This document shows positions 16,052 through 62,040 of a stretch of DNA of 64,000 bases, piece by piece. The notes below the pieces were generated by a model that saw only the letters and a list, made by a program, of their open reading frames with translations, searched no databases and had not been told where the DNA came from. The stretch lies in contig KZ538077.1 in the NCBI GenBank assembly GCA_000934665.2, positions 1-64,000 on the forward strand, written 5' to 3'. Source of the DNA: Catajapyx aquilonaris. Its lineage: Eukaryota. The first letter of the stretch is position 1, and the number at the start of each line of letters is the position of its first letter. The position numbers and the translations under genes are program-made.

Positions 16052-16052
<1 letters not shown>

Positions 16053-26942: not shown

Positions 26943-27179
26943 TCAATCTACAACTTCAGAAAAATCCTGCTCCTCATCTTGACTATCACGGTCCTCACTG
27001 GACTCCTGGTCCTGACTATCCAGCTCTTCCGTATTATTTTCCCATTCTTCACGAACTCCAGTGAGGTCTTCTGGAGATTCCGACCCCTTCTCCATTGTAT
27101 CCCTCCTGGAAGCTTCTGGCTCTTTGGGCGTCTTCGACTTGCGTCCAGCACCTTTACCTCTTGCTTTCCGGCACAAATT
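26943..27179 (-). CDS. timeout: Timeless/timeout probable terminal coding exon (basic then acidic tail, stop TGA)
   Basis: attaacag|, phase 0; NLCRKARGKGAGRKSKTPKEPE...DSQDEEQDFSEVVD*. The seven exons sum to 971 nt (about 323 aa) with no internal stop. Confidence 0.8.
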   Translation of the reverse strand, partial: NLCRKARGKGAGRKSKTPKEPEASRRDTMEKGSESPEDLTGVREEWENNTEELDSQDQESSEDRDSQDEEQDFSEVVD

Positions 27180-27245
27180 CTGTTAATATGCAGATATTTG
27201 TGTGTGAATTGTACAATGCAACAAGAAGCACTTCCTAATCCTTAC

Positions 27246-27349
27246 CTTCGTATCTTTAATGAGCCCTATATCTTTCAGTTTTTTAATCACTGAACGCCTA
27301 GTACGAACAGTTAATAAATGATCAATGATGAAATCTAGCGGGTCACGCG
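27246..27349 (-). CDS. timeout: Timeless/timeout exon (second half of HTH-like repeat)
   Basis: T-rich tract + cag| ... |gtaagg; 104 nt, phase 1/0; TRDPLDFIIDHLLTVRTRRSVIKKLKDIGLIKDTK fits D....I...L...R.R..I..KL...GL. Flanked by 75-nt and 66-nt introns. Confidence 0.9.
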
Positions 27350-27424: not shown

Positions 27425-27525
27425 TTTCATCACGTGAATCTTTGAACTCTTCATACAGCAATCGGAGTTCATCTTCATCCGACTCATTCCAGGCTGGTCC
27501 ACCTGCTGATGATACCTCACGGCGA
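27425..27525 (-). CDS. timeout: Timeless/timeout exon (start of HTH/Myb-like DNA-binding repeat)
   Basis: tttctttttcag| ... |gtaata; 101 nt, phase 2/1; SRREVSSAGGPAWNESDEDELRLLYEEFKDSRDE fits the W...EE.EL..L.EEF.DS motif. Confidence 0.9.
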
Positions 27526-29290: not shown

Positions 29291-29433
29291 CTTTTCGCCG
29301 TCCCGTAGCCCTCTTGGATGTCCAAGGCTTCCGGACCACTCTTCCACGCTAATAGCTCCACGAACAACTTGCTATTCTGGGAGGCCAAAATCTTAAATTG
29401 TTTCATCAGGTACTCCATGAACTTACGCAATTC
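29291..29433 (-). CDS. timeout: Timeless/timeout exon
   Basis: ttcttgcag| ... |gtaatt; 143 nt, phase 0/2; ELRKFMEYLMKQFKILASQNSKLFVELLAWKSGPEALDIQEGYG matches the Timeless EL..F...I...F......N.K.FVELLFWK.......EGYG motif. Not in the ORF track. Confidence 0.93.
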
Positions 29434-30270: not shown

Positions 30271-30484
30271 CTCATGCTGGGGATGGCGATTGGACACCAG
30301 TGGATCGTTGTATATCTTCTGACAGGTGCGCAAGAACGACGCCTGGAACAGGATGGATGGGTACTCCCATTTGTACACAATCCGGTGGAAAAACTTGATA
30401 ATCTGGTGGTTGACCGATGAGGAGTTTTCCAAGTAGTCATCGAATAGCAAACAGTAGCATCGAATTACCTTCGGGTGCAGGTAC
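30271..30484 (-). CDS. timeout: Timeless/timeout exon (conserved TIMELESS_C region)
   Basis: tccctgactgaag| ... |gtaaga; 214 nt, phase 2/0; YLHPKVIRCYCLLFDDYLENSSSVNHQIIKFFHRIVYKWEYPSILFQASFLRTCQKIYNDP matches the Timeless motif Y..LL..Y..NS...NH.I.K..HR.......LFQ.S......DP. Confidence 0.93.
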
Positions 30485-31277: not shown

Positions 31278-31389
31278 TTTGACTTGAAGTACTCCGCATA
31301 GGCGAAGGACTTTTCCTCAATGCGGGTGCGGCTGGCTTCCATCCGCTCTTCGAGTTCCTCCTCATCTTCGTCTTCATCACGACCATTGC
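31278..31389 (-). CDS. timeout: Timeless/timeout exon (acidic stretch followed by EKSF..EY)
   Basis: ttttctgtcag| ... |gtgagt; 112 nt, phase 1/2; GNGRDEDEDEEELEERMEASRTRIEEKSFAYAEYFKSK resembles the poly-Glu + EKEFNFLDYLKR segment of mammalian TIMELESS as I recall it. Confidence 0.88.
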
Positions 31390-32937: not shown

Positions 32938-32997
32938 CTTCATCGTCGCCCATCTCTCCTGATGGCGTACATTCAAAGGCCAGCTCAGTTGACGTGC
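32938..32997 (-). CDS. timeout: Timeless/timeout (tim2-type) internal exon; first exon visible in the window
   Basis: Acceptor tcttttcag| and donor |gtaaga; 60 nt, phase 1/1; reads (G)TSTELAFECTPSGEMGDDE(G) and joins in frame with the acidic next exon. Sequence similarity is weak, so support comes mainly from splice sites and phase. Confidence 0.7.
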
Positions 32998-35679
32998 CTG
33001 AAAAGATGCAAAAATGTCCATGAATAACATGCCGGTCATTTCGATTCTAAAGCCCCCAATGTAGGGGTCAGGCAAGAAACAGCATGGTTGTGTGGGTATC
33101 CAGCCGAGCGGAGCGAGGAAAAGAAACTTGGGTCCAAGGCCTGTAAAGCCAATTTGGAAGTAATGCTGTGGGCAGCAGCAACCGGCATGAAGGTAGAATT
33201 GGCTCTAAGTTGCGGAGGCGACGAAACTCTAGGTTGCCAGCCCACACCCCCCTGCTTCCCCGCACACCCACCACCAACCACTTAGAAAAGTCAAGCGCTA
33301 ACGTTATTTTCCAAGGAGAGTTGAGGTTTTCGAAACGCTGGCTGAGACCAAGCGCGCTGGAATTCCCAACCCTGCCAAATCCCATTAGAGTATTTAACAA
33401 GTTAAGTCGTCTCGGGAGAATAGTGCAGTGGTGGTGGTGGAAAGAGCGGGGGTGGGGGGAGTTCTGGGGCTCCATTTTCAGGCCCTGCAATCCCCGCTTT
33501 CCACCCACCCTCTCCGCCACCACCACCACCACCGACCGCCTCCCAAGGAAAACAAGGTGGGTGGGGGTGTAGGGGGAACATGGTCCCCAATCGGTTTATC
33601 CCCAGCGCCGCCTCCGCAATCCGACAGACTCACACTTGCATAAGTCGCAGAAGAGTTCCCAAGGAACAGACTACTTGGAATTAAACACCCAGCACCTGAG
33701 AACACCTCTAAAAACCGGCTAATAGCACACGTGTAACAGCAGGTAATTACAGCCCTTTGACTCATGCAACCGCGTTCCTTGGAGAGTTATCAGTTGCCAA
33801 ATAAACCACGTGATTTACGGTCCACAGTGCAGCGGCAGTCACCATTTACACGACAGCCCCGCTTCAAAAAACCATGACTTGCACGACGTGCACATAGATC
33901 GTACGCCCGACACTGTCAAAACACCGCCCATAAATTGAAACGCACGCCCACCGCCATATTTCTCACCCCAGCCGCATCCTTCGCCCTATGCAACGTTTAG
34001 GACAGTTGCATAGGGCGCAGGATGAGCGCTCGCTGTTGCCTGGGACAAGTTTGCAGCAATCAGTCCCTATTTAGAAAACACAAAACTCCAGCCGGCATAG
34101 CCCTGATTAGACACAGACTAGAGGGGATAACCAGTGTATTATTCGTGGCATTGGTGGGAAAAAGACGCCTCTCTCGCTGCTTCCTTCCTCTCTCGCACCA
34201 CAAAAGAGGAGAGAGAAAAAAAAGAGAAAATGGGCATGGAAAGGAATGAAATCCAACCGGTAGAGTTTCCTTCATTTGCAGCATGATTACAATGGAAGCC
34301 CTGCCTCCTCGGCGGGCCCTCGTTGATCATAGCTGCAAACTTTCGCAACTCGTTTTTCAGCCCGCTGAAGGAAAAGGCCAGGGAGGAAGCTGCTGAAGAG
34401 GAAGAGGAAGAGGAGAGTGCCGGAACGCTCGATAAATTCTGCTTGAATCAAGGACCGGTGGAGGAGTCAACACTACCCGGCCTAGGAGGGTCCAGCCTTA
34501 TTCTAATCAGTCAGGCAATCACACCTGGTTAGGCGCTTGCGTGCTACATGACTAATAACGATCGATTGTGGACAGAAAAATGCGGTATACCATATGCATT
34601 TTTGGGGGTCATTTCTTGCGGCAGACAACAGTGCACGTCGACCTAGGAGATATAACCTGTCGTTGTTATTTCCGCCTGAATCACAAAAGAGAGTCGTGTT
34701 TGACGCGACTAAGAGCACCATAAATATTACATCAAAGTTCAGGCTGGATATGAAACCACCTGTGCCCACGCAGCGCTTGCATCTGTGGGGTGATGTGTGG
34801 GCGCCAGTTGGGGGGGGGGGGCGGGGTAGGTGGAGGGGGAAAAAGGGGAGGGTTAAAAAACGCCGGATGCTAATGAATCATTAAGCGTTGAAATTGCTCC
34901 CCCTCCCACTTGCTCACAGTTAAAACAGATGTGGCAGAATTAGAGCCAATAATGGAATTGCGTGCAGAATTGTTTGTAAAGCCTCCTCCTCCTCCTCCCT
35001 AGTTTTTCCGGGGGTAAAAAACCGAGCCCAACTTTTCCACATCAACATTGCAAAATCCAGCCAGCGCAGCTCAATTTGGCCAATTCCGGCGGATACGTCT
35101 TATACACGCCAAAATAAAACCGGTCCCCGACCCCCCTAATTACGCCGAGGTTTATCTCCTTGGATACCGGGAATCTCATCCTAGCGGAAGTAATCGTAAT
35201 GAGGAAGGAATATCCGGGACCATCTCACGGAGGAAGTTGTGTCGCATGTAAGCAACAAACAACTATCTCCCCTTAACCGCTAACCGCCTATATACGCACG
35301 ATACGCGGTGCTTCGCAACACTCCAATTATACAACCCCAGACCCTTTTCTTAAGCCCCGAGCCGGACCTAGCCTTCCGAAAAATAAGGTAAATAACGGGT
35401 AGGAAATGGGCTGGAAGGTGTTGAAGCACAGTGCCGGTCCTTCCGACTCAATTTGGAGGGGAGAGTGAAAAATTGGTTCCTGTTGGAAGGCTGGGGGGAA
35501 GCGGACTTTCAATTTGCAGTCAATGAAGTTAACGAGGGGTATGGCTGCATCCCCGCCTCCTTTGCCCACCTTGTTTCATCGCTATTTGTTTGTCTGCCTT
35601 GTCGATTCCGCCACTAAAGGGATTAGGCTACTATGGGCCTAAGAAACATCGTGTTACTCCTACCCCACCCTTATGGAAA

Positions 35680-35741
35680 CCCCTGTGCCCTTATCAGCCC
35701 CCTCCAAGATGGGAGCTGATAAGGGCACGCGATAAGAGGGG
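35680..35741. mobile_element. Minimal copy of the same repeat family
   Basis: GTGCCCTTATCAGC ... GCTGATAAGGGCAC followed by GCGATAAGAGGGG. Confidence 0.55.
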
Positions 35742-38700
35742 TAGTGACCAGACCTTTCTATTACAAGACAGTGATCGTGTATGTCCCATCAAGCGGGAGT
35801 TACAAGGAGCCAATCACGGAGCGCAGGACAACACTCAGGAATATCGATATTACACAGTTGCCATTCATTTAGGATCGTGCTCGGCTGTTGGTTTTTCATA
35901 AAGGGAGCGGTGTAAGCTTGGAACTTGCGCGAAATGTTCATAAGCTTAAGCGCGATATCACTGGTGGGCGAAACAATACAAATCCTGCGGTTGGAAGAGA
36001 AGTGGCAATTACGTTAGCTTGTTTTATCCAAGTGACTGCCAGTCAGGCTAATCCAAGTGCGATACAAAATGGGAAGAGGATCAGAGGAAGTGCACCGTGG
36101 ACATTTACGCCGTATAAGAGTCCTAGAATGCGCGTTGTTTTTCTGTATCCAATTTCCAGCTAGTATCTGCACTTTGCTAACAATGTCAGTATTTTTGGGC
36201 CAAATCCGGTCGTGACACGTCGCAGTCTGCACTGAGCTCACCCCAACCTATTGACCACAAGCTCGCAAAACTCCGTCAAGCACAGCCGAAAGCCCCCGTG
36301 CTAATCAGCATAAAACGAAACTCCCACCTCCCAAAGCTGGCGTTTATGACTCCAACTAGTACTAGAAGGGTGGGGCATACACTTGATAGTTTAGTCATGG
36401 CTGTGATCTGAATTCCAGGCTAGCCCCTAGAAATTGATATTGGCAACACAGATCCGCTGGGTGTATAGGAGAGGGCAGGGCGTGAGAAAATGCTCCTTCT
36501 CCCCTACTCCACCATTGGCATTGCACCAATTTGGGCAAATTGGAGCGGGAGGCCATTGAGGAAGCGAATGGGTGCAGGGAGAGCGATGAATTGCTTCTTC
36601 CGATTTAGAGACACCCCATGGCAAGGCAGTGCAAGGCAAGCCTCCGTTCCTTATTTCCTCAAAAAGGGAGAGGGGAAGATGGGGAAGGGGTGGTGGTATG
36701 CACTTTCCCTAACGATGCCTTCAATATTACCTGCTTCCTCACCAATTGCCTTTCAAATGGGATGTAGGGGAGCCTTGACAAATGCGCTATTCAGAATGAC
36801 AGCAGGCATTACGTCTATTCCGTCAATTTTCTGCCCACTGTTACTATATACAGATTCAGAAACAACCGGAAGGTATTTTCTCTTCCGCTACGTTACCCCC
36901 TGTATTTACCAAGTGGAAATGAAAGAATCAGCTGAAGCGTGCTTACAAGTGGTTATTTTACCACCGGAAAAGAAAATAACTGCAAAAATTGAGTTTCTTT
37001 TCCGGAAGGGCTGGGAAGAGCGGTAATAGGCTTGTTGTCAATGAAGTGGCCCACCCTTCTTTTTTTTATTTTAAGAGCGGCTGAGTGAGTTTGAAGAAAT
37101 GAGGGAAGACCATGGAAATAATTTCTCCCTCCCTAACACTTTTAATCGCTTTCATTATTCCCATCGATTTCCATTCCGGGGGGAATATAACACGAATTCT
37201 CTCCGCTTGAAATATTCCGCCCCACAGCTCTCTGTTCAGACACAAGAAAAATTGTCTGTTTGAGCAGTGGGAGCCGCCATCTGTCGTCAGGTGCAAATGT
37301 CGCCAATTCACTCCACCCTGCAATCACCTAGTGGTCCCCAGCCATGTGGACCCTAGCCAAATTCAAAACGTGTCGCGTATTATTGCGCTGGAAACTGCCT
37401 GTACTTTACAGACTAAGTGAAACTTTACCCACCTAGCAACATCCCCCCCCATTCACACAGCAGGCAAGGGGAAGAGGGGACTTCCCCCTTAACCCTTATT
37501 AACGGTTATTACTTGAAAATAAAAATGAGGAAGAGAGGGGTTGGGTAGAGTAGATTCGGCCAGTCCACCTCCCCCATCTATTCATTAAATGCTATTAGGG
37601 CGGCACACAGCCCCATAACTCCTCCTTGCCGCCAAGAAATAATAAGTTGTTGAGGGTCAAGCCCTCGCCAAATTTTGCTGCTCGTAAAAGCGCTATTTTT
37701 TTCCCCCCCCTGAACGGGATTAGGGTATAGGGAGAGAAGAGGGCATCCGGGGCCTCCTGATTAAGCAGCCGGCAAACTCCAGCATTTGATTCCATTCCGC
37801 GCGCCCTAGAAGCAGAGCGATGTTTCCCAAAGGACAGTCAGCATGGAAAAGGTCAATTCCTCCGAAAGAAACTGCGCATATTTCCTCCCTTTTTTCTATA
37901 TTTTTTACGAGCTATATCAGGGACAGAGGATGCACGTTTTATATCCATTACGCCCAAGCGCATGGCTTTCCCTCAAATTGGCTCCGGATTTTAAGAAGAA
38001 ACCAGGTGTTGCGACCTCGTTTTATTTGGGCCTACACTTGGTGCATCTTGTAGGAATCCTAATTAGGAAATTAATTTAGCAGCGAGCAAGCTTAACTTAT
38101 TTAGTCCATCCATGTCGTTCCGGACAGGGAGACTTGAAACCCTACGGATTGCCCCCCGCTGCACACAGCACCCGGTAATGAACGCCTTTGCATTACCCCT
38201 TGGAGAATAGAATTTCAAATTTGGGCTCGGGGCAGGCAGCAGGGGCAAAGGGGAACAAATCAACTCAATCTTCCAAATAAATTAGCGCACTAATTCATTA
38301 GTTACTATGGTTATAACACCAGCTATTTTCCCACCCTCCTAGGCAACAGCCACGCTACCTCCCCCCTTTGCATTCGATCGCGTAAATATGTGCGCCATTG
38401 AGGATCGATCATGTCACGTGCATTCGATTGCTTAGGGTAGACCATGCTCTAGCACGTGTTAGAGAATGCTTATGGCATCATCGATTCAAAATGGCACCCA
38501 TTTCTATGCCAGCCAAATCACAATGGGAGTAGCGTTGGAGGAATTTTGTTGGGAAGGGGTTTGGAAAAGCGTGCAGTCCAAAAGCCCTAAATAACATAAA
38601 TTATGTAACATATGGAGCACTATTTTTCCGCAGCATTATAATATCTTAGTCTATATAGGCTATCGGCCTTGCAAAAAAATCGGATGAGGTAATGACTGTC

Positions 38701-49777: not shown

Positions 49778-49858
49778 CAGGGTGGTCCAACAAGAACCAC
49801 AGTTTACAGAAATTCGGATTTACAGTTACCGTCGGTTCTTCCTCGTTGGACCACCCTG
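49778..49858. mobile_element. 81-bp mini-MITE with CAGGGTGGTCCAAC TIR
   Basis: TA|CAGGGTGGTCCAAC ... GTTGGACCACCCTG|TG. Confidence 0.7.
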
Positions 49859-52800
49859 TGTGTAGCCCTAATACAGCGGTTCAAAACTAGTTTCATTGTA
49901 ACTGGGAACTACATTTCAGAACCGTTTCCATAAATTGAAAAAAAAGCACACGTGTACTGTACTGCGGATAGTCTGTCACCCAGTTCTGTTTAGTAATGGC
50001 GTTTACTGATAGTTCAGCCGCACTTTCCACCCTGTTACAAAATTTGGTGTGGAAACATTTGGCTCTCACAATGCATAGCCCACCCGCATCGGCTGAGCTA
50101 TTCCGGGACGGATAATTCGACGTCAAATGTGTTCCATATCTGCAACAATTGAAACCCGCTGTCAGTAATACGAGGTGACGTGCGTACACGAGAGAGTATT
50201 ATCCAGGCCCGAACTAAACGATTTCACTAGCTAGAGAAGAGTTGCAGTAAATGATTGGCCGCCGACTCCAAGACCGATACCAATAATTCATTTGCATCCG
50301 ACTAAAAACTGCGCCGATTCTAAACCCAGGGCTGCTCTCAGCAGCTTTGGTGACAGCAAAATATGCAGTGCGTTCAGCCTTCCTTCTAAAGTGTCCAACA
50401 TGATGGAGTAGCACGTAGCCTTCCGCGAGTGTTGGCCATAAAGATTTGGGGGTTCCCATGGTAAAAAAAAGGGGGGGAGAGAGAGGCAAATTATTTATCG
50501 CAGGCAAGTTGCTTTCAACTTGCCCCGCATCCATCGCCGTCTTTCCTTTTCCTTTTGCACTTGGGCACATCCAGGTATAGGCTATCCGGCAGCAGAAAAT
50601 TCTCCACGGTCATGTAAATCCTGGGGCCGAAGCTAATAACTACTCCCTATAGATGCGTGGATTTGTAGTCTCCGTGACCAGCAATTCAAAAGCTCCCTTC
50701 TGCTGCACAACTCGGTGTAATCCTGCTCCATGGATCCCCTATCGATCAGTAGTCCGGATTTGAAATTTACATCTACGGCCTGGCGTTTTTAATAAGGGGG
50801 CGCCGGGTGATACAGTATGTAAATAATTCGCCACTAAAACCGATTTCCTTGCCGCCACCTGACTTGTTGACTCTAATAACACGCTCGGCTTGTAGACTTG
50901 GGTCCACCTATAATGCGGCATGATGTCCTAGCAAAAAGATAACATTTCGGTTGCACCAGCGACGACAATGGATCAAATTAAGCCGGAAACTGACATACTG
51001 TGCCAAAGATAATTCTTCCGGTTCGCTGAATTTCAGATACGTTTGGAAGCTGCTCATATATTATCAATAGCTTTGGAGCACATGTGCAACTCTGAATTCT
51101 TTTAAAACAAATTGCGCATATTTACTAGCGATTAATTCCGTTCCCGAGATAGTACCCATTGAATACTTCCATATTATAATTTGTGGACCAGCATGGTGTC
51201 AGTCCAGGTTTCCCTCGGCTATTGTGCAGGCAATTTCACTCTCCCGTATAGGCTGCATAGCTATTGTGCACTTGAATCACCTGACAGCATGCCTCTACCC
51301 CCTCCATCATCCATTTTCCTTTCCCTCATAGCCATACAGCTCTGGGGATACTTCATGATATCTAGACCCGCTCCCGCATCATGTTCGCTCATTCTTCTCC
51401 TTAAAGATGGGGATGCACGCACCGCCTAACGCCCTAACCATATTCAAAGAGCTAACTATAGCCACGACAATCGCCACATCGCAACAGTCATACCGATAAT
51501 ACTCATACCTGACCCCTACTATAGAAAAGTACAAAACCCTGTGTACTTTCACATGTAGACGTTGCACGAATATTCAAACCTCAACAAGACACGCGTGAAA
51601 TGTACCAGCAAATGCATCTTTGGCACAAGCTTTGTCACCGACAAAAACCTAACGCCGCGTGTAAATCCAGCTTACTTATTGCTGCTCTTACTCACAGTCA
51701 GTGCATATAGCTATTCTCTCATGTTGATTTTGCCCTGACTTTCTCACATACACATAGGACTGTGTGCTGAAAATATAATCCGACTGATCAAATCTCCCGC
51801 TGAGTAACTCTTGACGCCCACGTGGCATCCCCTCGATGGTGCAAATGACGAGCTTTTACGGCGATGTGGCGGTCATGAATCTTGTTCCAGTATAAGAAGC
51901 CTGCTATAATTAAAGCGTAACTATCATTTCCACAATGAGACCCTTCAGAAAGCAAGAGTGGATCGATTACGGCGACATCTGCGCCAAGCTTCTCAAATTG
52001 CGACCAATTAAAAGTGACACCATGCATATGCATTAGAGAATTTTCATATTTTTATTTTGCCTAATATTATGAAAGTAATTTATTGTGAATATGCACAAAT
52101 GTTAAAGCTCGACGAATCGTTATATTCTTTCACAAGTGATAGAGCCAGGCCCACAATTATTCCAATTAGTTGGTGTCCCAACACCTTTCCAATTCAAGTA
52201 GGATAAAATAAGGGTGTCGAACATCGATGAAGATGGATGAGAAAGAGAGAGGGCGGGGATGGGGTGGAAAAAACAACAGGCCCAGCTTCGTCTTGAGACT
52301 CATCACACCTTCACCAACCAGAACCAGGCCCGGTTCCAAATCTCGCCCAACAGACGCGTTCAAAATTCATTCACCCCCTTATGCCACCCCCCAGTCAGTC
52401 ATGAAATATTCACACGTCTCCCCATGAAAGATTTTGTGTGTTCAACGGCTCTATTAGTTTGTGATGCATTTGGGATTATGCCAGCACTGTTCTTGCAGGT
52501 GGTCACCGACCTCCTGCCCGTGCCATGTACTACACACCACATATAGTCGTAGCTTCGGCTCCAAATTCCGCCATAAATTAAATTTTAAGAAATTTCGAAA
52601 AAAACCTGTCCACGGTCCGCGTCGCCCCTAATATTCCTCAATGCTACGCCTATTACAGGTCGGTTCACCACCATCACTTAACATGTCGCTGTCACCTGCA
52701 TGTCACACGCCAGGGCAGCCGAAACTATGCAGGCAGGAACCACGATCAATGTGTGAAGCATGTGCCAATCAGATAGACCATCCTTGACATAATGCGTTCA

Positions 52801-55399
52801 GGCGAATGCAGCCATGTCCCACCAATTATGCAAGGTTTTTGTCTAATTTACACAACAGATTTTTTTTTTTCTTGTGAAAAAACTAATTCATAATAGATGA
52901 GGACACCAGCGAGAAATTTCGCGTTGACGTAGTTGGCTTCAAAAAAACGGTTCCGGCACCTCTTTTATTATCTTTGAAAGCAGGGATTTGACGCTGCTCC
53001 GGACGTTTCCAAAGTGGCTCTTAGTGTCCTATTTTTCGTGTGTGGGTGTGTCCAGCCCACATGCACTGTACAGCTCTCGGACAGTGTTCATGGGCACAAT
53101 ATTGCTGGAAGCTTCCTATTCAGCTTAGTGACTAAACACGAAGAGGAGGAAGGGTGAACAAAAAAAATCACGGTACATTCACGACTTGTTTTATGGCTGC
53201 AAAAAAAACAAAAAAAAAAACTGTGTAATCAACTCCATTCAAGATTGTCCGTGCTGTTGACTGTCAACTGGCAAAAGGGTTGGCTCGTAGGTTGCCAAAA
53301 TGAAAACGGCAAGTGGACACGGAGCCAAAAATGGAAGCGTTGACTCGGTGCCAACGCAAACTGGCCGACTAAGCGTCTTTCCTTTCTATTCACGAGAGGA
53401 AACGGGTCAGTTTGGGATTATTTACACGGAAGTCTATAGAGCTTCGTTTCTATATGAAAAAAAGGCATTCATGTTATACAGAAAGGGTGAAGGCCAGTTT
53501 CTAGTGCTATCAAATGTGAGCACAAAAAAGCCAGTTTATGATGCCACAAGACACTGAACTTTTTCAAGTTACGAGCACAAATCACAATGCAAAGTACTTC
53601 CTGCAAGTTATTTGCAATATATTGCAACAAATTAGGCAAGATGCAACAATAATATAGACTAGTAGGTCTATACTGATAAAGTGTCAGTAGTGTACTGTAC
53701 CGCACTGTAGCCATGCTGCACAGTATAGCATTTCACGATAGCGGGAAAGTATGACAGACGTGACAGGGCCATTGAAGCTGTCAGTGATTGCCTCTAAGGT
53801 AATAAATAGCACCTGGTGTGCCAAATAAGCAGTTATGAAATTAAGCTGACCCAGCGCATTACTGAAATATTGCATAAACTACGGAATTGCTTTTCATGAT
53901 ACCCAAAACAACAATAATCATTAATAATGCCAATAATGAAATAATCAACTCTTCGTCCTGATGCAGTGTGGACGTTGGATGTCACATTATAGTCCTATAG
54001 AAGCTCCCGTCATCAACGTCGATAATAAAATTAAAGGAATTAAAAAAAATTCTGAGAACTAAAATGGTTCTAGGGGGAATTTGGGAGTGAACCATTACCA
54101 TGACGCCGAGACCACTGTCGCCATTTTTATGACATGGCACAAAACGCCATACGACAAAATGCGCCTAAGGAGAGGGGGAAATGTCTAGCGAGAGGTCATT
54201 GGCTGTTCGGTGAGATGGACTTGATGATGTGGAAGGGGTCAAGCTACAAAGCTACAGTGTACCGTAGACGCAAAATGCCACATAAGCGCGGCCATAGACC
54301 ATACACGTGCATTCGGCTTGCAACGATATCAAGTGTCAGGGTGCACTCGCTTCATGGGAGCTTGCACAACCGGGAACGCTTTTAACCAGCGCAACAACAC
54401 CTTGGCCTCCGGTGTTACACTATACCTTCACTGTACGGTTACTTGTAATGAATTGCAAACTACAGTAGTGTCTACTAATTGCGTCAGTTCCTGGTGAAAA
54501 TTGCACATGTTCCCAACTACGCACGAGTCAAATAAGCTGAATGTAGGCTTACAGGTTACTGACATTTGCATAAGTAACAACCTGTACTGTACTCGCAATA
54601 AGTTGTTTTAGAATAAATGCTATCCAATTGGCAATTTTTATTATTTTTGAGAGGATTTTGTCCAGAGGCGTTCTTTTCACCAAGTTTGTAAAGACGCACA
54701 AGTACGAAACCCGCAGAATTTCCGCAGTTTGAAAAAAAGGATTAAATTTCCGCTCGACAAACTCTGATCAGTAAGGAGATTGATCCGGCATCATAATAAT
54801 AAGCCTCGTCGCCTGCATGCATAATCGGCTCAAGGAGCGACGGCAGCTTCACGCTTGCCCATCCCGCCATAAACACCAAATAAGATGGGGGAGACGTAGT
54901 TGCCGTTAAGCAAAGGATCATGTCCGCCTGACTCACTCCGGAACACTGCTGGGAGATCCGGTCCAGTCCAACTTGCAAGTAGAATGGCAATTGTGCCAGC
55001 TAAGCCGGCTAGCTGTGGAGGAAGCAGGCAGGCAGAGAGAGGCAGAGAGGAAGGTTCCTAGACGCAAACTCCGTACATTTCCGATTTCTATGCAGAACAG
55101 GCGCACAATGTTCCACATTCACGCGCCCGAACTGCAATCCACGTTTCATTCCATTTTTAACTCATTCCAGCACAATGGACCGGATGAATGAGCCGGCCCA
55201 AAATTCAATTGATACACTCGGGTCATTCTGAACCACCGTTTGGCAGTGTTGGTGAATGAATTGAGAAGCGGATGTTGTCGGCTGGCATTCCAGGGGCAGG
55301 GAACATGTCAACCTGCCTGGGTGCAAGGCGACGATGGCATTGTCCTGGCTGGCTGGCTGGCTGGGCTGGAGGTGGGCAGAGGAAGCGTGTGCGCGTGGG

Positions 55400-55646
55400 T
55401 TGGCCTATCTGCGTCTGCGCGGTGGATCGGTTGCGCGCGGGAGCTGCGAAGATGGGCGGCTGGGCCTCCGACACAGACAGGGGGGCTCACAGCCAAACCG
55501 CACTCGCTGCCATCCGGACGGGGGGGCCTGGCACTCTTGCCCTTTCGCGACGTCCATCCGCGTGTGTCAGTGGTGTGCATTGTTTCTCCCCATACCCAGT
55601 GACAACACCCCCGGATACATTCAAGTCGGAGGACTTGCCACACACG
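55400..55646 (+). other. Probable non-coding first exon of the LRR gene (5' boundary approximate); intron 55647-59121
   Basis: Strong donor ACG|GTAAGT at 55647 after a GC/CpG-rich stretch; strong acceptor ccttgttttgttttgcAG| at 59121, just upstream of the LRR ORF. Confidence 0.5.
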
Positions 55647-58600
55647 GTAAGTGTTCGCAGTTGCCCTTCACCGGAATGACCAAACGGCCTCCGTCCATCT
55701 GGATGTGTCCTTGATCACCCCCCCCCCCCCCACCCCCCCGATCTTGGCTCTTCCTGACCCACATGTGCTCAAGGCCAGGAAACCCAGCAATGAATCTGTT
55801 CCTGTGCGCTTTACATATTGGACCGCTACCTTTCGCGCCGAAACAAGGGACTATGGCTCCTACGTCCTGCCCGATTTTTTCCCTCCAAGATGGAATTGGC
55901 AGCTTTCCTTTTGACTATGCGGATCCACGGGCTGCGGCGCTTTGAATCACTTACGGAGACGAGGTCTGCGAAATAAATCACGGATTGGGAGGGGAACGGG
56001 AGAGAAACGCTACCATCTCTCACTCCAAATCTCTCCCGGTTGCGAGGATCTCCGGAAACTCCAGGCAATTGACAATGCCGACCCAACTTCTAACTTGCCA
56101 ATATTTAGATGGGGGTTCGGCACGCGCGCACACACAAAAAACACACTTTCTGGGTCTAAAGTGCATTTGCGCTCGGTTCCTCGACCAATTCGTGTCCCGC
56201 TTTGCTTTAATATTTAACCCGGCTCCTGAATATCTCAGGGCTCCTACAAATACGGCCAATTCAAAGCTACCACGTTCCAATTAGAGCCGGAGATGAGTTC
56301 GGTGGGGGTTAGGGGGAAGGCGGGAATGGATGTCCGTGCTCAACCTTTTTTTTTTTTTTTAACTCCAGGACCGGGGAGGGGCAACAATGCGAGAGGAAGG
56401 CCATTTCGAAGGAGTTGGCAAGGCAAAGGGCCAGTGGACGTCACGGCTCCCTGAGGATACCGACGGAGGAGGGGAAAAGACTAGCTGCGCTTGGAAAAAC
56501 AATCCGGGCAATTCCGGGTTCCCGGGAGCGGCCCCTATGTCTCAAACTACCAAGGCAGAACGTGACGGGAGCCAGGTGCTCGATTGATCCTCCATTCTAG
56601 TGTCCCGTTCCTCTCACAACACACTAAATAAATAACACTGCCAATGCTAGATTTCCTACCAAGTATCCACCCAACAATTTGCCGCCTTCTCATAATTCTT
56701 GCAACGGGCCCGGCTCTACATAGAAGCCCGGATTGCAGCAGCCATGAAGCATGCAATACCCTCCCGAATATGTGTTACATAATGGGACGACCTTGATGCA
56801 TTTTAGTTGGTCGTACCAGTATTCCTCAGCGAAAAGGGTTACCAGCAGATATATTAAAAAGCGCACGCAAAGACCCCGTTGTTTCCTTCCCAGAAGAATC
56901 GTCATAAATACAAGTTTGGTCCGGGTGGAAAAAGGCTCGTTCCGGGCTTTCGTTCCGGGCGTTTTTCTCCATTTGGGCCTATTCCCACAGTGCAATGCAG
57001 TAAAAGGAGGGAGGGAGGCTGGGATAAAAAAAGAATTGAGTTAAAGCCTTTTACTCGGTCCATGTCAAGCCTGTCTGTTGACTTGTTGGCCCCAAGCCCG
57101 GAGAGATAGTTAGGGGAAAACTATTTGATACGAATTAGGCTAAGATCCTTCACATTGCCGCGATCAATGGTTTGAAGGAGGTTGGACCAGGTAAGGCCTT
57201 CAATAAAATTCCATGGGATGGCGTGAGAGCACGTCGCTGGGTTCAGGGTATGGCGAGACCCCCCATCCCAATGCTCCGGAACCTTGAAAATCAATTCGAG
57301 TATATAAATGCATGTGCCGAGAGGAAAAAGCTGGCGGAGGGGAAAGAGAGGTGATGGAGTTCTTCCGGCAAAAACAGGAGTAGCGAACGAGGGCCTCGAC
57401 TTCTTTTGCGGCGCCGTCCGATTGATTTTGCGAAGGGGGAAAAGTAAGAAGAAGGGGGACCACAACCAAGAAGTGTTTCACGCAGGGTCGACCACCCGCT
57501 CTAGACACTTGTGGATTTTTTCCCCGACTTGGAACCAATCAAGCCGCACAATTTTCATTCACCTAAAGCCACGTTTTCTTGCCGGGAAAAAGTGGGTAGC
57601 GTTAATATCCAATATATGATCTTCCTATAAATCTTGCCTGTCTCATTTGTTATCGCGGCAGCGCAGTGGCAACTTTATCCACACAATGGTTTCTTTAGCG
57701 ATGAGCGGCTCAATTTCACTTGACTATGATCCGCTCTTATTGCTTTTGTTTGTAACGCCGCTTGTCAGCCCTAGCATGAATTATCCGCAACTAAATGAAA
57801 ACAGTTGGATAATAAGAGAAAGAGCCCAGGCGCTAAATGCCTCACAGGCACGTTCGCTTTAAAAATAATAAATCCTGGAAAACGGCGCCGGAACAGCAAT
57901 TGTAGAGGGCCCTAATCACATTCAAGAAAATCACTATTTTTAACGCAGTGTTGTACGGTGTCCGCGGACAAGAAGTGGCTTGCACCATCATGTTACACAG
58001 TGGAAAATGTAGTAGGCATTTCATCCAACCCATTTTTTTTGCCGAATAGTGCAGAGAAGAGCCTGCTTCGCCATGAGCTCTGCACACTAGGGATTCGCTC
58101 TTGGTGGATTTGAAATTAATTAATCTAGACCTATGTTGCAAAACGAACCTACATGAACTACCCGTTAATATCCACGCATGGACTATGTCCAGACCTCCCC
58201 CCCCCCCCCNCCCCCCCCCTCTAAAAAAAATGTTCGGCTAATATTGCTACCCTGCATTTCCCCACGAACGGTGGCATGGAAAGGGCATAACAAAATTATT
58301 TATCAATTAAAATGAAGGTAGCGCTATGCCGAGCATCTCGGTTTAGTGCGAACAGGCATACCCGCTCACGGGCTTCTAGTTAACGTCGCCTTAAGTAATT
58401 CCCCCCTGGTGTGTTTTGCGCGGCGGCAATTAATTTTGCCAAACAAGTCAGTCTGCGAATTTTTTCCCTTAGCTGAGAAGTGCTCTAGGAAGAAGCGGCT
58501 CCCGTTTTTTTTGCCATACTATGTCGGGGTAGTCCTAATGAGAAACTTAGGAATTGCTTAGCAAAGATTTGATCCTCCCGAGATTGTATGGCCTTGAGAT

Positions 58601-59376
58601 TAGCTCGTAACGAGCGAGTAAATGCGCTGGAAAAGAGCGAGCCCAAGAAGCCAGTTTTGCGGAAGCCGGAGTTTGAGCTGGGCCTGCGTCTTCCACTTGC
58701 CTCTCCAGGGTTTTATTGTGGTCAGTTATAACCCCCTCCAGTTGGCTTCTGCCACTTGCAGTAGTCCGATGGATGGGGCTGCTGGGAGTGATTTTTGCCA
58801 CGCTGTTACAGCTTCTAATTGCACCCACATTTCCGGAGGAATTCGCCCGACTTGAGCACTGCACGTCAAATTAGATGCGCCCTAATGTCGCCGTTTGTTT
58901 TGTGACCAACGCTGCCTGGCAGAGTTTCGCGCGGCTAATGACGTAACTTCCCACGGCTACTTTTACGGGTTGTTGAATACCAACCACATTGCGGCTGGGT
59001 CGGGGGGAACAAAAAAAAAGGCCTCAAAACAGTTCCTTGCAGTGTAGATTGCCAAGCTCTGTAGGTAGTGAGAAGCTTTAACATGCAAATTCTAAGTTCG
59101 ATGCCTTGTTTTGTTTTGCAGGAACACCCCTTCACCTGGATGGAGATAAGCAGCACCTAGTGACCCCGGCTAACTAATCGCGTGGATCAGCTGCAGGCAC
59201 TAGGGGACTCGGTCCATTTCGGTCAACGAATCGCGCGGGATGTGAACCGGAGAGGAGCTCAGAATCTGGCACCCGAATGGCTTGCCACGAGCGACCCAAT
59301 GCTGCTCAGCATTAACCCTCCCTTCTTCTTTCCGTCCTCCTTCTTCCTCCCTCGAATGATGATCCATCCAGATACC

Positions 59377-62040
59377 ATGTCCAAGCCAAGAGGCCTCTTT
59401 CTTTTCCTTCTGCTGTTGCTGCTGCCCCCATCCTTCACGGCCATCCAGCAGCAGCAGCAGCAGCAGTTCGGCTCGTGTCCCAGCTTCTGCTTCTGCGACG
59501 AAGCCAGCCAGTACGTCAGCTGTGTGGGCGATGGCCTCTGGGAGTTGCCCACCGACGTTCCCAAAAACGCTCTCCGGCTCGAATTCAGAAACTTCGCCGT
59601 GACCCAGCTCAAGATTTCCATGATGGACGGTTTCGACCAGCTGAAGGAACTGGTAATCCATTGCGCCCAGATCCAACGGATCGAGAATGGAACCTTCTCG
59701 GCCTTGTCGCGCTTGGAGAACCTGGACCTCAGCCAGAACCGGCTAGAGAATGTCAGCCGGGCTACCTTCGAGGGCACCAATGCCCTCCGACATTTGGATC
59801 TGTCTTCCAATCGTCTCTCCTCCCTAGACGACGCCTTTGTCGACCTGAACAACGTGGAGCAACTCAATCTGAGGGACAACAACCTGCCCAGCCTAACGGC
59901 CCTCAGTTTCCAGGGCCTACAGAAAGTGCAGTACTTGAACCTGGACTCCAACTCTATCGCCAGTATCGACGTGGGCACTTTCCAAGACCTGGTCAGTCTG
60001 GCCCATCTCATCCTCAGCAACAATCCTCTGGTCCAGCTGGCACGTCTAGATTTCTTCGGCTCTAGGCTGCAGTTCCTGGACATGTCCCACGTGGGCCTGA
60101 TTCGGGTTCCGCAGAGCCTGACTCGATTCGTGAGGGACCTGCGCTTGGCCAAAAACAATCTGACGGCCATCGCCAGGGGTGACTTTGACAGCTATCCTAA
60201 TATAGGCCTGCTGGTGCTGGACGACAATGCCATCACCGAAATCGAAGATGACGCCCTGGGACGCCTGGAGTTCTTGCAACGCCTGTGGCTGAATGGCAAC
60301 CGACTCTCGTCCGTGCCGCAGAACTTGCCTCCCAGCTTGAAAGCCCTCTATATGGAGGAAAACCTTCTGCATACCCTCCGAAGCCACGAGTTCCGAGGGC
60401 TCAACATGTTGGAGCAACTCTTCCTGCAGCGCAACCAGATCCAAGAGTTGGCTCCCTGCGCCTTTTGCGACCTGGTCAGCTTGAGAAACTTGGATCTGCA
60501 AGCTAACATGATGGAGTCCATTCCCGAGGGGGCTTTTGCCAACTTGACCAGCCTGGAGACCTTGGACCTGTCGCAGAATCCTCTCCGGACCATCTCCGGA
60601 ACTAGTTTCTCCGACTTCACCTCCCTCAAGGTCCTGCAGATGTCACGCTTGAAGTATCCTGTCATCTTTGATGAGACGCTCTTCGATCCACTGCAACGCT
60701 TGGAAATACTGGAGGTATACAATAGCCCCTTCTTCGCTCAGAACCTGGTCCAGAGCGCCCGAGCTTTGCATGGTCTCCGAAACATCCGAGAGCTGAACCT
60801 GATGCACAACCACTTGGAAACCCTGCGGTCAGATTTCCCCAAGTTCTTCCCCCAGCTCCGCATGGCCAAAATGAGCAACAATGAGTGGGACTGCCGCAAC
60901 CACTCTCTCCACTGGCTGGCGCAATGGATCCTTCATTCCAACGTGCAATTCTTCAAGGCCTCCCGGGTCACCTGCGTCAAACCAGAACAGTGGAAGGGAC
61001 AGCCAGTGTTCGTCTTCCACGACAGCGACTACGCCAAGACCAGCACCAATGTCATTCCAACCACTCGCCTGACTACCACACCCTCTTCTCTCCCCACCTC
61101 GCCCGTCACCACTGCCAAAGGCTCGCGTCGACCATACACGGCCGTTCTGGTCACTACAACTGTCGGATCCTCCACCGACCACATGACGACCACTCTGGAC
61201 GACCTGTCTCGAACGGAAGACGGCGACGTCCTGCCAAGTTCCACACTGGAAGCGTCTGAAACCTACCAGACGACCACAGAGTCCGTCACGCAGATTGCCC
61301 AACACGACAAAACCGACTACGTGGAAGGTGACATCACCTGGCCTGACACCACAACCGCCGACATCGTCACCACCACTGTGAGTCCTACCACCCCTATCGC
61401 CACCTCCACCATGAGCACGACCACTAGCACCACACCCACTACCACCGCCATCACCACCACCACAACCCCCTTACCCTTCCTACCTACCAAGGTAGACTAC
61501 ACCTACAAGACGACTCCCACTAAAAAACCCTACCCAAAACCCAAACCGGAGAGAAAACAATGGAAAGCAGCGTCGGAAACCCCTGACCACCATCCGAACG
61601 ACCACAGTCACCATGTCCTCCAAGAATCCATCCCGACGCCTGGTAACGACCTAGAAGAAGCCAGCTCGTCGGTGCACGAGTCTCTGCTGGTGGTGGGCAC
61701 TTCGGTGGCAATCAGCCTGGGCCTCCTTCTTCTGGGCACCGTCCTGGCTCTTGCCCTGTACCGCTACCGGAAGGCAGCGGGCAAGTGCGGTTCCGTCCTA
61801 CACCTCTTCAGCTGTCGGAAGCGTCGCGGCTCCTCCATCTCGTACCTGCCGCAGAGGGACGAAGTGCACATAGTCACCGTGTCGGACGGGACGGTGTCAG
61901 TACAAGGGGACCACCACCACGGTTTGGAAAACAAACTCTACTTTAGCATGGAGGGCCAGCCCCACGCCAATGGCGGCTACTCCACCCAGTTTGCGCACTG
62001 CGACTTGCGGGACTTTGACGACTTCCAGGGCAACTTGTAG
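59377..62040 (+). CDS. 2mit: Single-pass transmembrane leucine-rich-repeat protein, 2mit-like (about 887 aa)
   Basis: Intronless ORF: signal peptide MSKPRGLFLFLLLLLLPPSFTA, polyQ, LRRNT CPSFCFCDEASQYVSC, roughly 15-16 LxxLxLxxN repeats, LRRCT-like NEWDC..WL..VTCVKP, long Thr-rich stalk, TM LLVVGTSVAISLGLLLLGTVLALALY followed by RYRK, and a ~90 aa tail. ATG 59377 (accATG) sits just before the signal peptide; in-frame ATGs at 59299 and 59356 are alternatives. The gene symbol is inferred from domain architecture plus position in a tim2 intron. Confidence 0.9.
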   Translation: MSKPRGLFLFLLLLLLPPSFTAIQQQQQQQFGSCPSFCFCDEASQYVSCVGDGLWELPTDVPKNALRLEFRNFAVTQLKISMMDGFDQLKELVIHCAQIQRIENGTFSALSRLENLDLSQNRLENVSRATFEGTNALRHLDLSSNRLSSLDDAFVDLNNVEQLNLRDNNLPSLTALSFQGLQKVQYLNLDSNSIASIDVGTFQDLVSLAHLILSNNPLVQLARLDFFGSRLQFLDMSHVGLIRVPQSLTRFVRDLRLAKNNLTAIARGDFDSYPNIGLLVLDDNAITEIEDDALGRLEFLQRLWLNGNRLSSVPQNLPPSLKALYMEENLLHTLRSHEFRGLNMLEQLFLQRNQIQELAPCAFCDLVSLRNLDLQANMMESIPEGAFANLTSLETLDLSQNPLRTISGTSFSDFTSLKVLQMSRLKYPVIFDETLFDPLQRLEILEVYNSPFFAQNLVQSARALHGLRNIRELNLMHNHLETLRSDFPKFFPQLRMAKMSNNEWDCRNHSLHWLAQWILHSNVQFFKASRVTCVKPEQWKGQPVFVFHDSDYAKTSTNVIPTTRLTTTPSSLPTSPVTTAKGSRRPYTAVLVTTTVGSSTDHMTTTLDDLSRTEDGDVLPSSTLEASETYQTTTESVTQIAQHDKTDYVEGDITWPDTTTADIVTTTVSPTTPIATSTMSTTTSTTPTTTAITTTTTPLPFLPTKVDYTYKTTPTKKPYPKPKPERKQWKAASETPDHHPNDHSHHVLQESIPTPGNDLEEASSSVHESLLVVGTSVAISLGLLLLGTVLALALYRYRKAAGKCGSVLHLFSCRKRRGSSISYLPQRDEVHIVTVSDGTVSVQGDHHHGLENKLYFSMEGQPHANGGYSTQFAHCDLRDFDDFQGNL

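Follow-up and report, generated by a model that had tools for sequence, protein, structure and literature searches.

A 2MIT-family leucine-rich-repeat gene antisense to the 3' exons of Timeless, apparently outside the insects: a probable nested pair

Gene content of the locus

The window analyzed here, a stretch of 64,000 nucleotides, carries two genes on opposite strands (Table 1). On the minus strand lie the 3' exons of a gene of the Timeless (timeout) type, Timeless being a fork-protection subunit of the replisome, and upstream of these exons, on the plus strand, lies a gene for a transmembrane (TM) protein with leucine-rich repeats (LRRs). The existence of both genes is shown here, together with the strand each occupies, the distance between them, and the family to which each belongs; their nesting is considered further below.

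Table 1. Features of the Timeless and LRR genes in the window
Feature	Position	Strand	Basis
Timeless exon F (final coding exon; encodes the acidic C-terminus)	26943..27179	-	AG acceptor, phase 0; in-frame stop 26945-26943; weak collinear profile match 936-988
Timeless exon E	27246..27349	-	AG/GT sites; collinear profile positions 846-878
Timeless exon D (W-x-ES-DEDEL-x-LLYEEF, DNA-binding region)	27425..27525	-	AG/GT sites; 6taz_B, E 0.025; human TIMELESS 889-910, weak; profile 818-843
Timeless exon C	29291..29433	-	human TIMELESS 765-810, E 2.5e-5; profile 762-810, E 7.3e-12; tblastn matches from 23 representatives
Timeless exon B, best-conserved block	30271..30484	-	human TIMELESS 702-761, E 2.8e-6; profile 694-759, E 1.2e-24; 149 library proteins match with E<=0.001
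Timeless exon A (acidic run and EKSFAYAEYF)	31278..31389	-	phase-1 acceptor, AG/GT sites; A-B junction restores profile reading; weak alone (profile 663-692, E 4.6)
Candidate Timeless exon Z	32938..32997	-	acceptor CAG behind a polypyrimidine tract, donor GTAAGA; in phase with exon A; +3.5 bits
Putative Timeless host intron, at least 31 kb, open at window end, holding the LRR gene	32998..64000	-	no Timeless N-terminal exon found inside
LRR transmembrane gene of the 2MIT family (single coding exon; 887 aa and a stop codon)	59377..62040	+	ORF from ATG 59377; Pfam LRR families; orthologs; tree; D. melanogaster 2MIT, E 8e-41
Predicted signal peptide, residues 1-22	59377..59442	+	by eye: hydrophobic leucine run behind MSKPRG
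Ectodomain of LRRs and a C-terminal cysteine cap (approximately residues 65-545)	59569..61011	+	Pfam stretches; DSYP...DALGR motif at residues 271-296
Thr-rich mucin-like stalk, about residues 555-745	61039..61611	+	translation
Transmembrane segment, about residues 770-795	61684..61761	+	hydropathy window; single TM segment, near residue 775
Cytoplasmic tail, 92 aa, motif RRGSSISYLPQRDEV-IVTVS-GT...HHGLENKLYF common to non-insect orthologs	61762..62037	+	tail comparison, 25 proteins

Exons A to F, six in all and canonically spliced, cover the minus strand between 31389 and the stop at 26943; together they code for about 300 residues at the C-terminus of a protein of the Timeless/timeout type. 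The spliced model, with AG/GT sites and compatible phases, is 303 aa long and scores 210 bits over positions 663 to 945 of a profile made from 15 full-length Timeless representatives; exons B and C by themselves reach 125 bits. Searched against the ORFs of the window, the same profile produced collinear matches, two of them strong (E values as for exons B and C) and the remainder weak. A PDB search matched the ORF at 30193-30486 to human TIMELESS, with the Caenorhabditis elegans homolog also recovered, and the ORF at 29290-29451 to the adjoining part of the human protein, while the ORF at 27372-27608 gave a weak match. By these PDB and profile matches, the central block equivalent to human TIMELESS residues 702 to 810 is present and conserved; the C-terminal region, comprising the DNA-binding helices and a basic and acidic tail, is collinear and joined via canonical splicing in the A-F model. 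Accordingly, the placement of Timeless 3' exons on the minus strand in a preliminary description of this DNA is borne out by the PDB and profile matches, the six spliced exons, and the stop codon, whose position coincides with the start coordinate given there.

That description had also taken an exon at 32997 (exon Z) as the first one visible. Its splice sites and phase fit, but homology support is absent: exon Z has no match to the Timeless profile at an E value of 50 or below and raises the score of the spliced model by only 3.5 bits (213.9 versus 210.4). Since it is splice-compatible yet without homology support, we treat exon Z as a candidate only.

Names containing "timeless" ("protein timeless homolog" or "timeless-like," from an isopod, a copepod, an abalone, and a shark) were found for 6 of the 10 Timeless representatives looked up; the same 10 include three unnamed or hypothetical products and three entries without a name. 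Where matches to the Timeless part bore "timeless" names, these were of the "timeless homolog" or "timeless-like" type, in a comparison set without any sequence known as tim1. The PDB includes a structure of Drosophila TIM; no such chain was listed among the PDB matches of the Timeless ORFs at E<=10.

No exon for the N-terminal ~660 positions of the Timeless profile was found on either strand of the 64 kb, in agreement with the earlier observation that the 31 kb upstream of the visible exons contained no further Timeless exon. Searches by tblastn with 28 proteins of at least 800 aa (E<=1) returned no HSP above 30486, and hmmsearch --max against 3,092 ORFs of at least 12 aa from both strands produced nothing better than E 4 for profile positions 1 to 660. 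The weak N-terminal profile matches (E 4 or worse) were rejected as non-collinear, of low complexity, or without a usable donor. Counting against the Timeless assignment, a Pfam search of 150 single minus-strand ORFs did not find the TIMELESS family. The N-terminal TIMELESS domain (PF04821), which is carried by the full-length representatives P0242, P0259, and P0262, was not found in the window; since the Timeless gene probably runs off the window end, its absence from the gene does not follow. The C-terminal domain PF05029, which in the Pfam copy used is the 88-position PAB domain only, matched no ORF of the window. Given that it was also undetected in all three of these full-length representatives, it is not family-defining in these animals.

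On the plus strand, the stop-to-stop ORF at 59164-62040 is the sole long ORF in its region. Its product matches LRR_8 (E 2.6e-62) and six other LRR families in Pfam, and a pattern search of the ectodomain yielded thirteen spaced LxxLxLxxN-type units (17 raw matches, of which four were non-LRR or overlapping). In the cytoplasmic tail, RKRRGSS reads by eye as a possible RRxS-type site. The complete plus-strand LRR-Thr-rich-TM gene of the preliminary description is therefore confirmed as an intact single-exon ORF of 887 aa with a predicted signal peptide, LRRs, stalk, TM segment, and tail.

Family assignment of the LRR protein

The architecture of the LRR protein (predicted signal peptide, capped LRRs, Thr-rich stalk, one TM segment, and tail) fits that described for 2MIT, namely, a signal peptide, a capped LRR ectodomain of ~16 to 18 repeats, a disordered Thr/Ala-rich stalk, a TM segment, and a cytosolic tail (PMC3786989). 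For the tail of 2MIT, short linear motifs (14-3-3, PKA, and FHA sites by ELM) have been reported. Among the top 67 matches of the protein (E<=1.4e-119), all named ones were from chelicerates, myriapods, or crustaceans, and the first insect match ranked 68th. In a "quick" tree of 69 rows with several long branches, a clade of 55 rows (SH-aLRT 98) united the window protein, the non-insect orthologs, 14 dipteran 2MIT sequences, and 16 other insect proteins. Outside it fell 14 of the 18 outgroup rows, among them every chaoptin, artichoke, and FN3-LRR protein. The window protein grouped with centipede and millipede orthologs, not with insects, so that the source looks like a non-insect arthropod, most likely a myriapod; insects were not nested among crustaceans, and four unnamed proteins lacking the family motif described below adjoined the non-insect group (support 91). 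A constraint placing all 51 family rows in one clade was not rejected (p-AU 0.146), for a group defined after the tree was seen.

When three dipteran 2MIT sequences were searched against roughly 237 gathered LRR proteins, as opposed to the whole fly proteome, the window protein ranked 46th to 56th of about 236, and the top 60 consisted only of 2MIT, other insect orthologs, and the window protein's group. In the forward direction, BLASTP aligned 313 aa of the window protein with Drosophila melanogaster 2MIT at 35% identity (E 8e-41), and E values in this search were 1e-41 to 6e-39 for 2MIT versus 5e-32 to 6e-31 for fly artichoke and chaoptin. The 90% cluster of P0184 includes D. melanogaster 2mit NP_650258.2, NP_650258 being the accession used for this protein in PMC3786989. 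Furthermore, we defined a family motif in the mid-LRR region, GD(F/L/M)DSYP ... (I/V)E-x-DALGR-x-E. An exact DSYP...DALGR occurs in the window protein as well as in 14 of 14 dipteran 2MIT sequences, 12 of 16 other insect proteins, and 13 of 20 non-insect rows. None of the 18 outgroup rows has it. In a comparison of 25 tails, that of the window protein could be aligned to the tails of non-insect orthologs but to neither those of insect proteins nor those of dipteran 2MIT. Altogether, the tree, the reverse BLAST, and the motif support, at the level of sequence, membership of the window LRR protein in an arthropod family that includes D. melanogaster 2MIT. The grouping with 2MIT proposed in the preliminary description thus stands against chaoptin/artichoke-type proteins, by the clade, the motif, and BLAST, within a set of outgroups that were returned by similarity searches and that excluded tartan/capricious and connectin.

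Probable nesting of the LRR gene

The putative host intron is in phase 1, directly before the acidic run and near profile position 640 to 660, and Pfam detected no family among the 150 longest other ORFs, except for one low-complexity match elsewhere. We consider it probable that the 3' third of a Timeless gene lies here on the minus strand, preceded by an intron spanning 31 kb or more that holds an antisense, non-insect counterpart of 2MIT. The LRR gene probably lies within this giant Timeless intron, although nesting follows only if the Timeless gene is intact and the scaffold correct, since the 5' exons are outside the window. Under this scenario, the Timeless 5' exons, including the N-terminal TIMELESS domain, would be found beyond position 64000, and the LRR gene would form a separate transcription unit with its own promoter within the host intron. 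The product of the LRR gene is, on this reading, a surface receptor of nerve-cell type, an LRR membrane protein of type I that corresponds, outside the insects, to Drosophila 2MIT. Such a pair would have been inherited from an ancestor shared with insects and not newly assembled, and it may have been kept since regulatory DNA of the LRR gene interleaves with the host intron, as has been proposed for Drosophila (PMC3786989). A giant intron at this point would also explain possible splitting or truncation of arthropod Timeless gene models here (compare Pollicipes P0237).

Alternatively, the two genes could be linked but not nested, the Timeless piece representing a 5'-truncated copy, a C-terminal-only gene, a retained fragment, or one side of a misjoined scaffold, with the LRR gene a mere upstream divergent neighbor. 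The failure to find an N-terminal Timeless exon in 64 kb is in keeping with this reading, as are an internal ATG in exon A and seven short N runs (assembly gaps) in the window. In addition, the best-scoring library match of exon B is the Pollicipes gene model P0237, which is without an N-terminal domain and whose start, at the acidic/EKEFDF point, coincides with that of exon A, so C-terminal-only Timeless models do occur in databases. However, P0237, made up of two near-identical copies, has the look of an artifact of annotation or assembly. Exon A, for its part, starts at a phase-1 AG acceptor after a pyrimidine tract and not at a start codon, and AG/GT sites, matching phases, and the frame are kept in all six exons, which argues against a decayed fragment. 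Given also that both families share the same antisense neighborhood in flies and bees, where their nesting is published (PMC3786989), we regard linkage without nesting as unlikely.

We find it far less credible still that the LRR gene is no ortholog of 2mit but a member of another extracellular LRR family, brought near Timeless by chance or by a lineage-specific insertion into the intron. Genes that insert do find a neutral niche in long introns (introduction of PMC3786989), only 35% of residues are identical to fly 2MIT over 313 aa, LRR proteins cross-match widely, and the tails of insect and non-insect proteins are unlike. Moreover, whole-protein HMMER values for chaoptin and artichoke (about 1e-54 to 1e-49) come close to those for bee orthologs (1e-59 to 1e-60). 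Set against these points are the tree clade with its SH-aLRT of 98, the absence of the DSYP...DALGR motif from the outgroup rows, and the order of reverse BLAST hits. The distribution is also complementary, in that the named members of the window protein's group include no insects while the insect matches fall in the 2MIT clade. The linkage to Timeless, an independent character, agrees as well.

Possible age of the pair

With an antisense 2MIT counterpart in a Timeless intron as the preferred reading, the tim2-2mit pairing may be far older than reported. In PMC3786989, the pair is reported only for Drosophila and Apis and is dated only to before the split of Hymenoptera and Diptera. A myriapod-like case would push its origin much deeper. 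Few nested gene pairs last long, and conservation of nesting within the Drosophilidae, as quoted in PMC3786989, is only 20 to 34%. The tim2-2mit pair itself is not universal: it is described there as lost in four Lepidoptera, and the Timeless and LRR proteins of Armadillidium vulgare are recorded on contigs that differ in length.

We propose, with the case for and against it about evenly balanced, that the nest predates insects, going back at least to the myriapod-insect (Mandibulata) ancestor and perhaps to all arthropods. It would then have persisted for about half a billion years, lost here and there (Lepidoptera and possibly isopods), and would be one of the oldest host-nested pairs, probably held together by regulatory DNA of the LRR gene in the host intron. 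As part of the same proposal, the ancestral 2MIT tail would have been of the form RRSSSISY-x-PQRDEVSIVTVSEGT...HHGLGNKLYF, a strongly conserved cytoplasmic signaling tail, with its replacement taking place at the base of the insects. A nest of this depth would provide a natural test of whether cis-regulatory constraint or chance keeps nesting in place. Furthermore, annotation as 2MIT family members could be given to the non-insect orthologs that currently go by "LRR-containing protein 15-like," "slit homolog," and similar names.

Relation to known nested pairs

The closest known system is tim2 (timeout)/2mit of D. melanogaster (Baggio et al. 2013, PMC3786989), which, as described there, combines the same host family with the same LRR type I membrane family. 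In Drosophila, 2mit lies antisense in tim2 intron 11, and the LRR gene is likewise on the opposite strand, upstream of the host 3' exons (PMC3786989). The fly protein follows the same plan, in which a signal peptide and about 16 capped LRRs are followed by a stalk that is Thr-rich and disordered, a TM segment, and the tail (PMC3786989). However, fly 2MIT is 1,141 aa long compared to 887 aa here, its coding region occupies two exons as opposed to one (PMC3786989), and its ~186-aa tail is Ser-rich, whereas the 92-aa tail of the window protein has a motif common only to non-insect orthologs. The fly pair, moreover, is that of an insect, which the window organism appears not to be, and nesting is no more than probable in the present case. 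Apis mellifera, in which 2mit (GB10366, 999 aa) is antisense in tim2 intron 14, provides a non-dipteran case of the same nest (PMC3786989). Bee-type orthologs (Osmia and Halictus) share the family clade with the window protein but, unlike it, have tails of 28 to 29 aa ending in ELW.

Among other LRR proteins, chaoptin and artichoke were the nearest in our searches (25 to 30% identity, at the E values given above), but they are about 1,200 to 1,500 aa long, have many more LRRs, lack DSYP...DALGR, and fall outside the clade with support of 98. A parallel involving other genes is Mab21 in Lrba/Nbea (Tsang et al. 2009, as cited in PMC3786989), a functionally unrelated nested pair kept across Metazoa over very long times, perhaps owing to regulatory elements that the host intron contains. 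Unlike that of the window pair, its conservation, as presented in that source, rests on full genomic context.

A Timeless-type gene on the minus strand

A timeout-type Timeless gene had been proposed on the minus strand in the preliminary description, and protein comparisons support a Timeless-type gene there. The minus-strand open reading frame (ORF) at 30193-30486 aligned with residues 702 to 761 of human TIMELESS (E = 2.8e-6) and also with the Caenorhabditis elegans homolog, ORF 29290-29451 aligned with human residues 765 to 810 (E = 2.5e-5), and ORF 27372-27608 aligned weakly with the human DNA-binding region (E = 0.025). An exhaustive search with the first of these ORFs returned 149 proteins at E ≤ 0.001. 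Six of the ten long matches checked carried "timeless" in their names ("protein timeless homolog" or "timeless-like"; isopod, copepod, abalone, and shark), and the remainder were hypothetical or nameless products. A profile built from 15 full-length Timeless representatives matched six minus-strand ORFs collinearly, at profile positions 663-692, 694-759, 762-810, 818-843, 846-878, and 936-988. The two strongest of these matches reach E = 1.2e-24 and 7.3e-12; the remaining four are weak.

Exons A to F, delimited from the DNA (see table), have AG acceptors, GT donors, and compatible phases. Their spliced product of 303 residues scores 210 bits over profile positions 663-945. Because the six exons splice in frame and reach this score, against ~125 bits for exons B and C alone, we read them as the 3' third of a gene of Timeless type, intact rather than decayed. 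Against this, Pfam recognized no TIMELESS family among 150 single minus-strand ORFs at 14 to 33 kb. PF05029 in the Pfam copy used is the 88-position PAB domain only, which matched no window ORF and likewise none of three full-length Timeless representatives tested.

The first visible exon had been placed at 32997. The splice sites and phase of this segment, exon Z, fit that placement: a CAG acceptor lies behind a pyrimidine tract, the donor is GTAAGA, and the single leftover base and exon A together make up a Gly codon. However, exon Z has no profile match at E ≤ 50 and raises the spliced model by just 3.5 bits, and we retain it as a candidate Timeless exon only.

Features of the window, with coordinates and basis
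Feature	Coordinates	Strand	Basis or remark
LRR gene	59377-62040	+	Single exon
Tail of the LRR protein	61762-62037	+	Tail comparison with family proteins, including P0001-P0051
Candidate exon Z	32997-32938	-	Splice sites and phase
Exon A	31389-31278	-	DNA reading, splice sites
Exon B	30484-30271	-	DNA reading, splice sites
Exon C	29433-29291	-	DNA reading, splice sites
Exon D	27525-27425	-	DNA reading, splice sites
Exon E	27349-27246	-	DNA reading, splice sites
Exon F	27179-26943	-	Acceptor AG, stop codon 26945-26943
MITE-like elements	144-579, 19652-20002, 48436-48803		Inverted-repeat arms
Copies related to MITE-like elements	4752-4937, 20294-20434, 5052-5146, 15100-15194
Direct repeat pair	7169-7264, 16288-16383		96 nt, 88% identity
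Long trinucleotide runs	427-746, 15926-16189		Translate as poly-Asn, poly-Ile, or poly-Thr
Seven N runs (1-12 bases)	9808, 18231, 24034, 26607, 27655-27659, 58210, 62886-62897		Mostly within G/C homopolymer tracts

The absent N-terminal part and the probable nesting of the LRR gene

The N-terminal two thirds of Timeless (profile positions 1-660) were not found within the 64-kb window; this part includes the TIMELESS domain, which is strongly conserved, and the PFDA...REVWP segment, present in most of 15 aligned orthologs. In a tblastn search, 28 query proteins of 800 aa or longer, two of them unrelated repeat proteins and some without N-terminal parts, produced no high-scoring segment pair above coordinate 30486 at E ≤ 1. 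An unfiltered hmmsearch of all 3092 ORFs that reach 12 aa, on both strands, returned, for profile positions 1-660, best E values of 4 or more, in matches that were non-collinear or of low complexity. A weak collinear match at 34923-35099 (E = 22), a candidate for the REVWP-segment exon, was rejected for want of a GT donor before the stop codon. Neither search gave a credible match to this part, in line with the earlier observation of no further Timeless exon across the next 31 kb.

Since N-terminal exons are absent from these searches, the 5' exons would lie beyond 64000 if the gene is whole, and the intron before exon Z or A would then span at least 31 kb with the antisense LRR gene inside it. 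We strongly infer that the LRR gene is nested in a Timeless intron. The putative host intron is in phase 1, directly ahead of the acidic run that comes before the block corresponding to residue 702 of human TIMELESS. Among the 150 longest ORFs outside both genes, Pfam recognized no further gene or transposase in this intron; the sole match in that set, to Secretin_N_2 at 427-735, is an artefact of a low-complexity Asn run. CpG observed/expected ratios in 1-kb bins revealed no CpG island near 31 to 34 kb or elsewhere in the window.

The main alternative, though unlikely, is that the two genes are linked but not nested, the Timeless exons belonging to a truncated copy or a misjoin. A gene model from the barnacle Pollicipes pollicipes (P0237, XP_037090859.1) lends this alternative some basis, as it comprises only the C-terminal half and starts where exon A starts: it consists of two near-identical Timeless C-terminal halves, lacks the N-terminal domain, and begins at acidic/EKEFDF. 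However, this model looks like an artefact, of a kind to be expected because a giant intron here, if present, would break gene prediction. P0237 and the barnacle ortholog of the 2MIT family, P0033, are both recorded on a contig of 64,043,775 bp with accessions ~1100 apart; the P0237 model may reflect a large barnacle intron at the corresponding position. In Armadillidium vulgare, the Timeless-like proteins P0242/P0387 and the 2MIT-family proteins P0051/P0396 are recorded on contigs that differ in length in both assemblies, 139,069 versus 134,569 bp in one and 51.6 versus 14.7 Mb in the other, and the linkage may have been lost in this species. Such contig and accession clues are too indirect to count as evidence on linkage either way, and we continue to favor nesting.

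The LRR gene and its assignment to 2MIT

From 26 to 64 kb there is only one long ORF, at 59164-62040 on the plus strand; translated from the ATG at 59377, it encodes 887 residues. Pfam assigned it to LRR_8 (E = 2.6e-62), as well as to LRR_4, LRR_5, LRR_1, and three other LRR families. The translation opens with a hydrophobic signal-like start and a short poly-Q tract, and a cysteine cap then leads into an LRR run, with 13 spaced LxxLxLxxN-type units out of 17 raw pattern matches. The LRRs are closed by a C-terminal cysteine cap and followed by a stalk rich in Thr, a single hydrophobic segment around residue 775, and a tail of 92 residues. The coding region is intronless and aligns with orthologs along its whole length, with query coverage of 93 to 97% against those of spider, horseshoe crab, and millipede. 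The complete LRR transmembrane gene with a Thr-rich region described earlier is thus confirmed.

The best 67 database matches (E ≤ 1.4e-119) are, where named, all chelicerate, myriapod, or crustacean. The first insect match, from Periplaneta, ranks 68th (E = 1.6e-83), and bee proteins, at ~1e-59, score scarcely better than chaoptin and artichoke. The insect matches resemble one another most and, next to that, the group of the window protein. The link to fly proteins was made with residues 1 to 620 of the Onthophagus member as the query, in a length range chosen to admit fly proteins; it found 2mit-named proteins of Drosophila pseudoobscura, D. madeirensis, and Eurosta, along with 11 more dipteran relatives. 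The 90% cluster of a D. simulans protein contains D. melanogaster "2mit, isoform C" (NP_650258.2), and NP_650258 is the 2MIT accession used by Baggio et al. (PMC3786989). By BLASTP, the window protein shares 35% identity with NP_650258.2 over 313 aa (E = 8e-41). In reverse searches with three dipteran queries against a set of ~236 LRR proteins, the window protein ranked 46th to 56th within this set, outranked only by orthologs from insects and by proteins of its own group.

A tree of 69 ectodomains (615 columns, IQ-TREE quick search) placed the window protein in a clade with 19 non-insect orthologs and Pycnogonum, 14 dipteran proteins (themselves supported at 100), 16 other insect proteins, and four unnamed proteins (SH-aLRT 98), leaving all chaoptin, artichoke, and FN3-LRR proteins outside. 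A tree joining all 51 family rows, a group defined only after the tree had been seen, was not rejected (p-AU 0.146). Within a chelicerate-plus-myriapod group, the window protein falls in a six-row set with the millipede Chamberlinius, the centipede Strigamia, and three Logan proteins (SH-aLRT 95). Its highest ectodomain identities are 59 to 60% with two nameless proteins, followed by Strigamia (57%) and Chamberlinius (56%). On this evidence, the protein is likely that of a non-insect arthropod and most plausibly of a myriapod. Four ENA/Logan LRR proteins (P0069, P0071, P0074, and P0088) sit beside the non-insect 2MIT group with support of 91 and lack DSYP...DALGR; they may be non-arthropod relatives or a sister family.

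This mid-LRR motif, DSYP with DALGR ~20 residues further on, occurs in exact form in the window protein and all 14 dipteran 2MIT proteins, as well as in 12 of the 16 other insects and 13 of the 20 non-insect rows. Other family rows show one or two mismatches; in Darwinula alone, DALGR is missing entirely. None of 18 outgroup rows has the motif. The distribution of database matches, the supported clade, the BLAST results in both directions, and the shared motif support the grouping with 2MIT proposed in the preliminary description.

The tree has features that speak against orthology: insects do not fall within the crustaceans, and a number of branches are long. The cytoplasmic tails, too, differ in sequence in a way that would weigh against it. 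Non-insect proteins have in common a tail motif, RRSSSISY-x-PQRDEVSIVTVSEGT...HHGLGNKLYF, of which the window protein has a close variant. As RRSSSISY-x-PQRDEVSIVTVSEGTVGL...HHGLGNKLYF, it is strongly conserved in centipede, horseshoe crab, spider, scorpion, and tick and partial in crustaceans, and it is absent from the insect members compared. Insect tails other than those of Drosophila have ~25 to 31 residues and end in ELW; the Drosophila tail has ~186 residues and is Ser-rich. In our reading, the insect and non-insect proteins make up a single orthogroup that changed markedly at the insect base, and the linkage to Timeless, as an independent character, agrees with this reading.

Repeats, gaps, and remaining sequence

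Three MITE-like elements, one of them within the inferred host intron, have inverted-repeat arms of 83 to 121 nt that are 87 to 98% complementary, with ~170 to 200 nt between them; related copies occur at four further places. Both copies of the 96-nt direct repeat encode, in minus-strand translation, a common peptide, FPFTCV-RVSD-H-GGVWQPNLLG, and probably belong to a dispersed repeat family. The N runs are assembly uncertainties, none of the seven within an exon of either gene. At 1-26900, 3' of the Timeless stop, Pfam recognized no coding sequence among the longer ORFs of both strands; the best match was a weak RING-finger-like one at 18876-19133 (E = 0.0045), below the cutoff.

Comparison with the insect tim2-2mit pair

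Among the papers listed by searches of open-access articles and preprints, none reported a tim2-2mit pair outside insects; in the available text of the Strigamia genome paper, timeout is merely listed among the genes present. An alignment of 10 orthologs led to 15 loci in metagenome contigs at 26 to 38% identity, which are not orthologs, and none of these contigs had a Timeless match at E ≤ 0.01. In D. melanogaster, 2mit lies antisense within the 11th of 17 tim2 introns, an arrangement found in 21 Drosophila species (PMC3786989). Fly 2mit has nervous-system expression, is required for short-term memory in courtship conditioning, and shows no functional tie to tim2 (PMC3786989). The gene occupies intron 14 in Apis and is not nested in four Lepidoptera; the authors hold the nest to be older than the divergence of Hymenoptera and Diptera and suggest an intronic neuronal enhancer as the constraint (PMC3786989). 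If our reading of the Catajapyx locus as nested is true, this published insect gene pair reaches a likely non-insect, myriapod-like arthropod.
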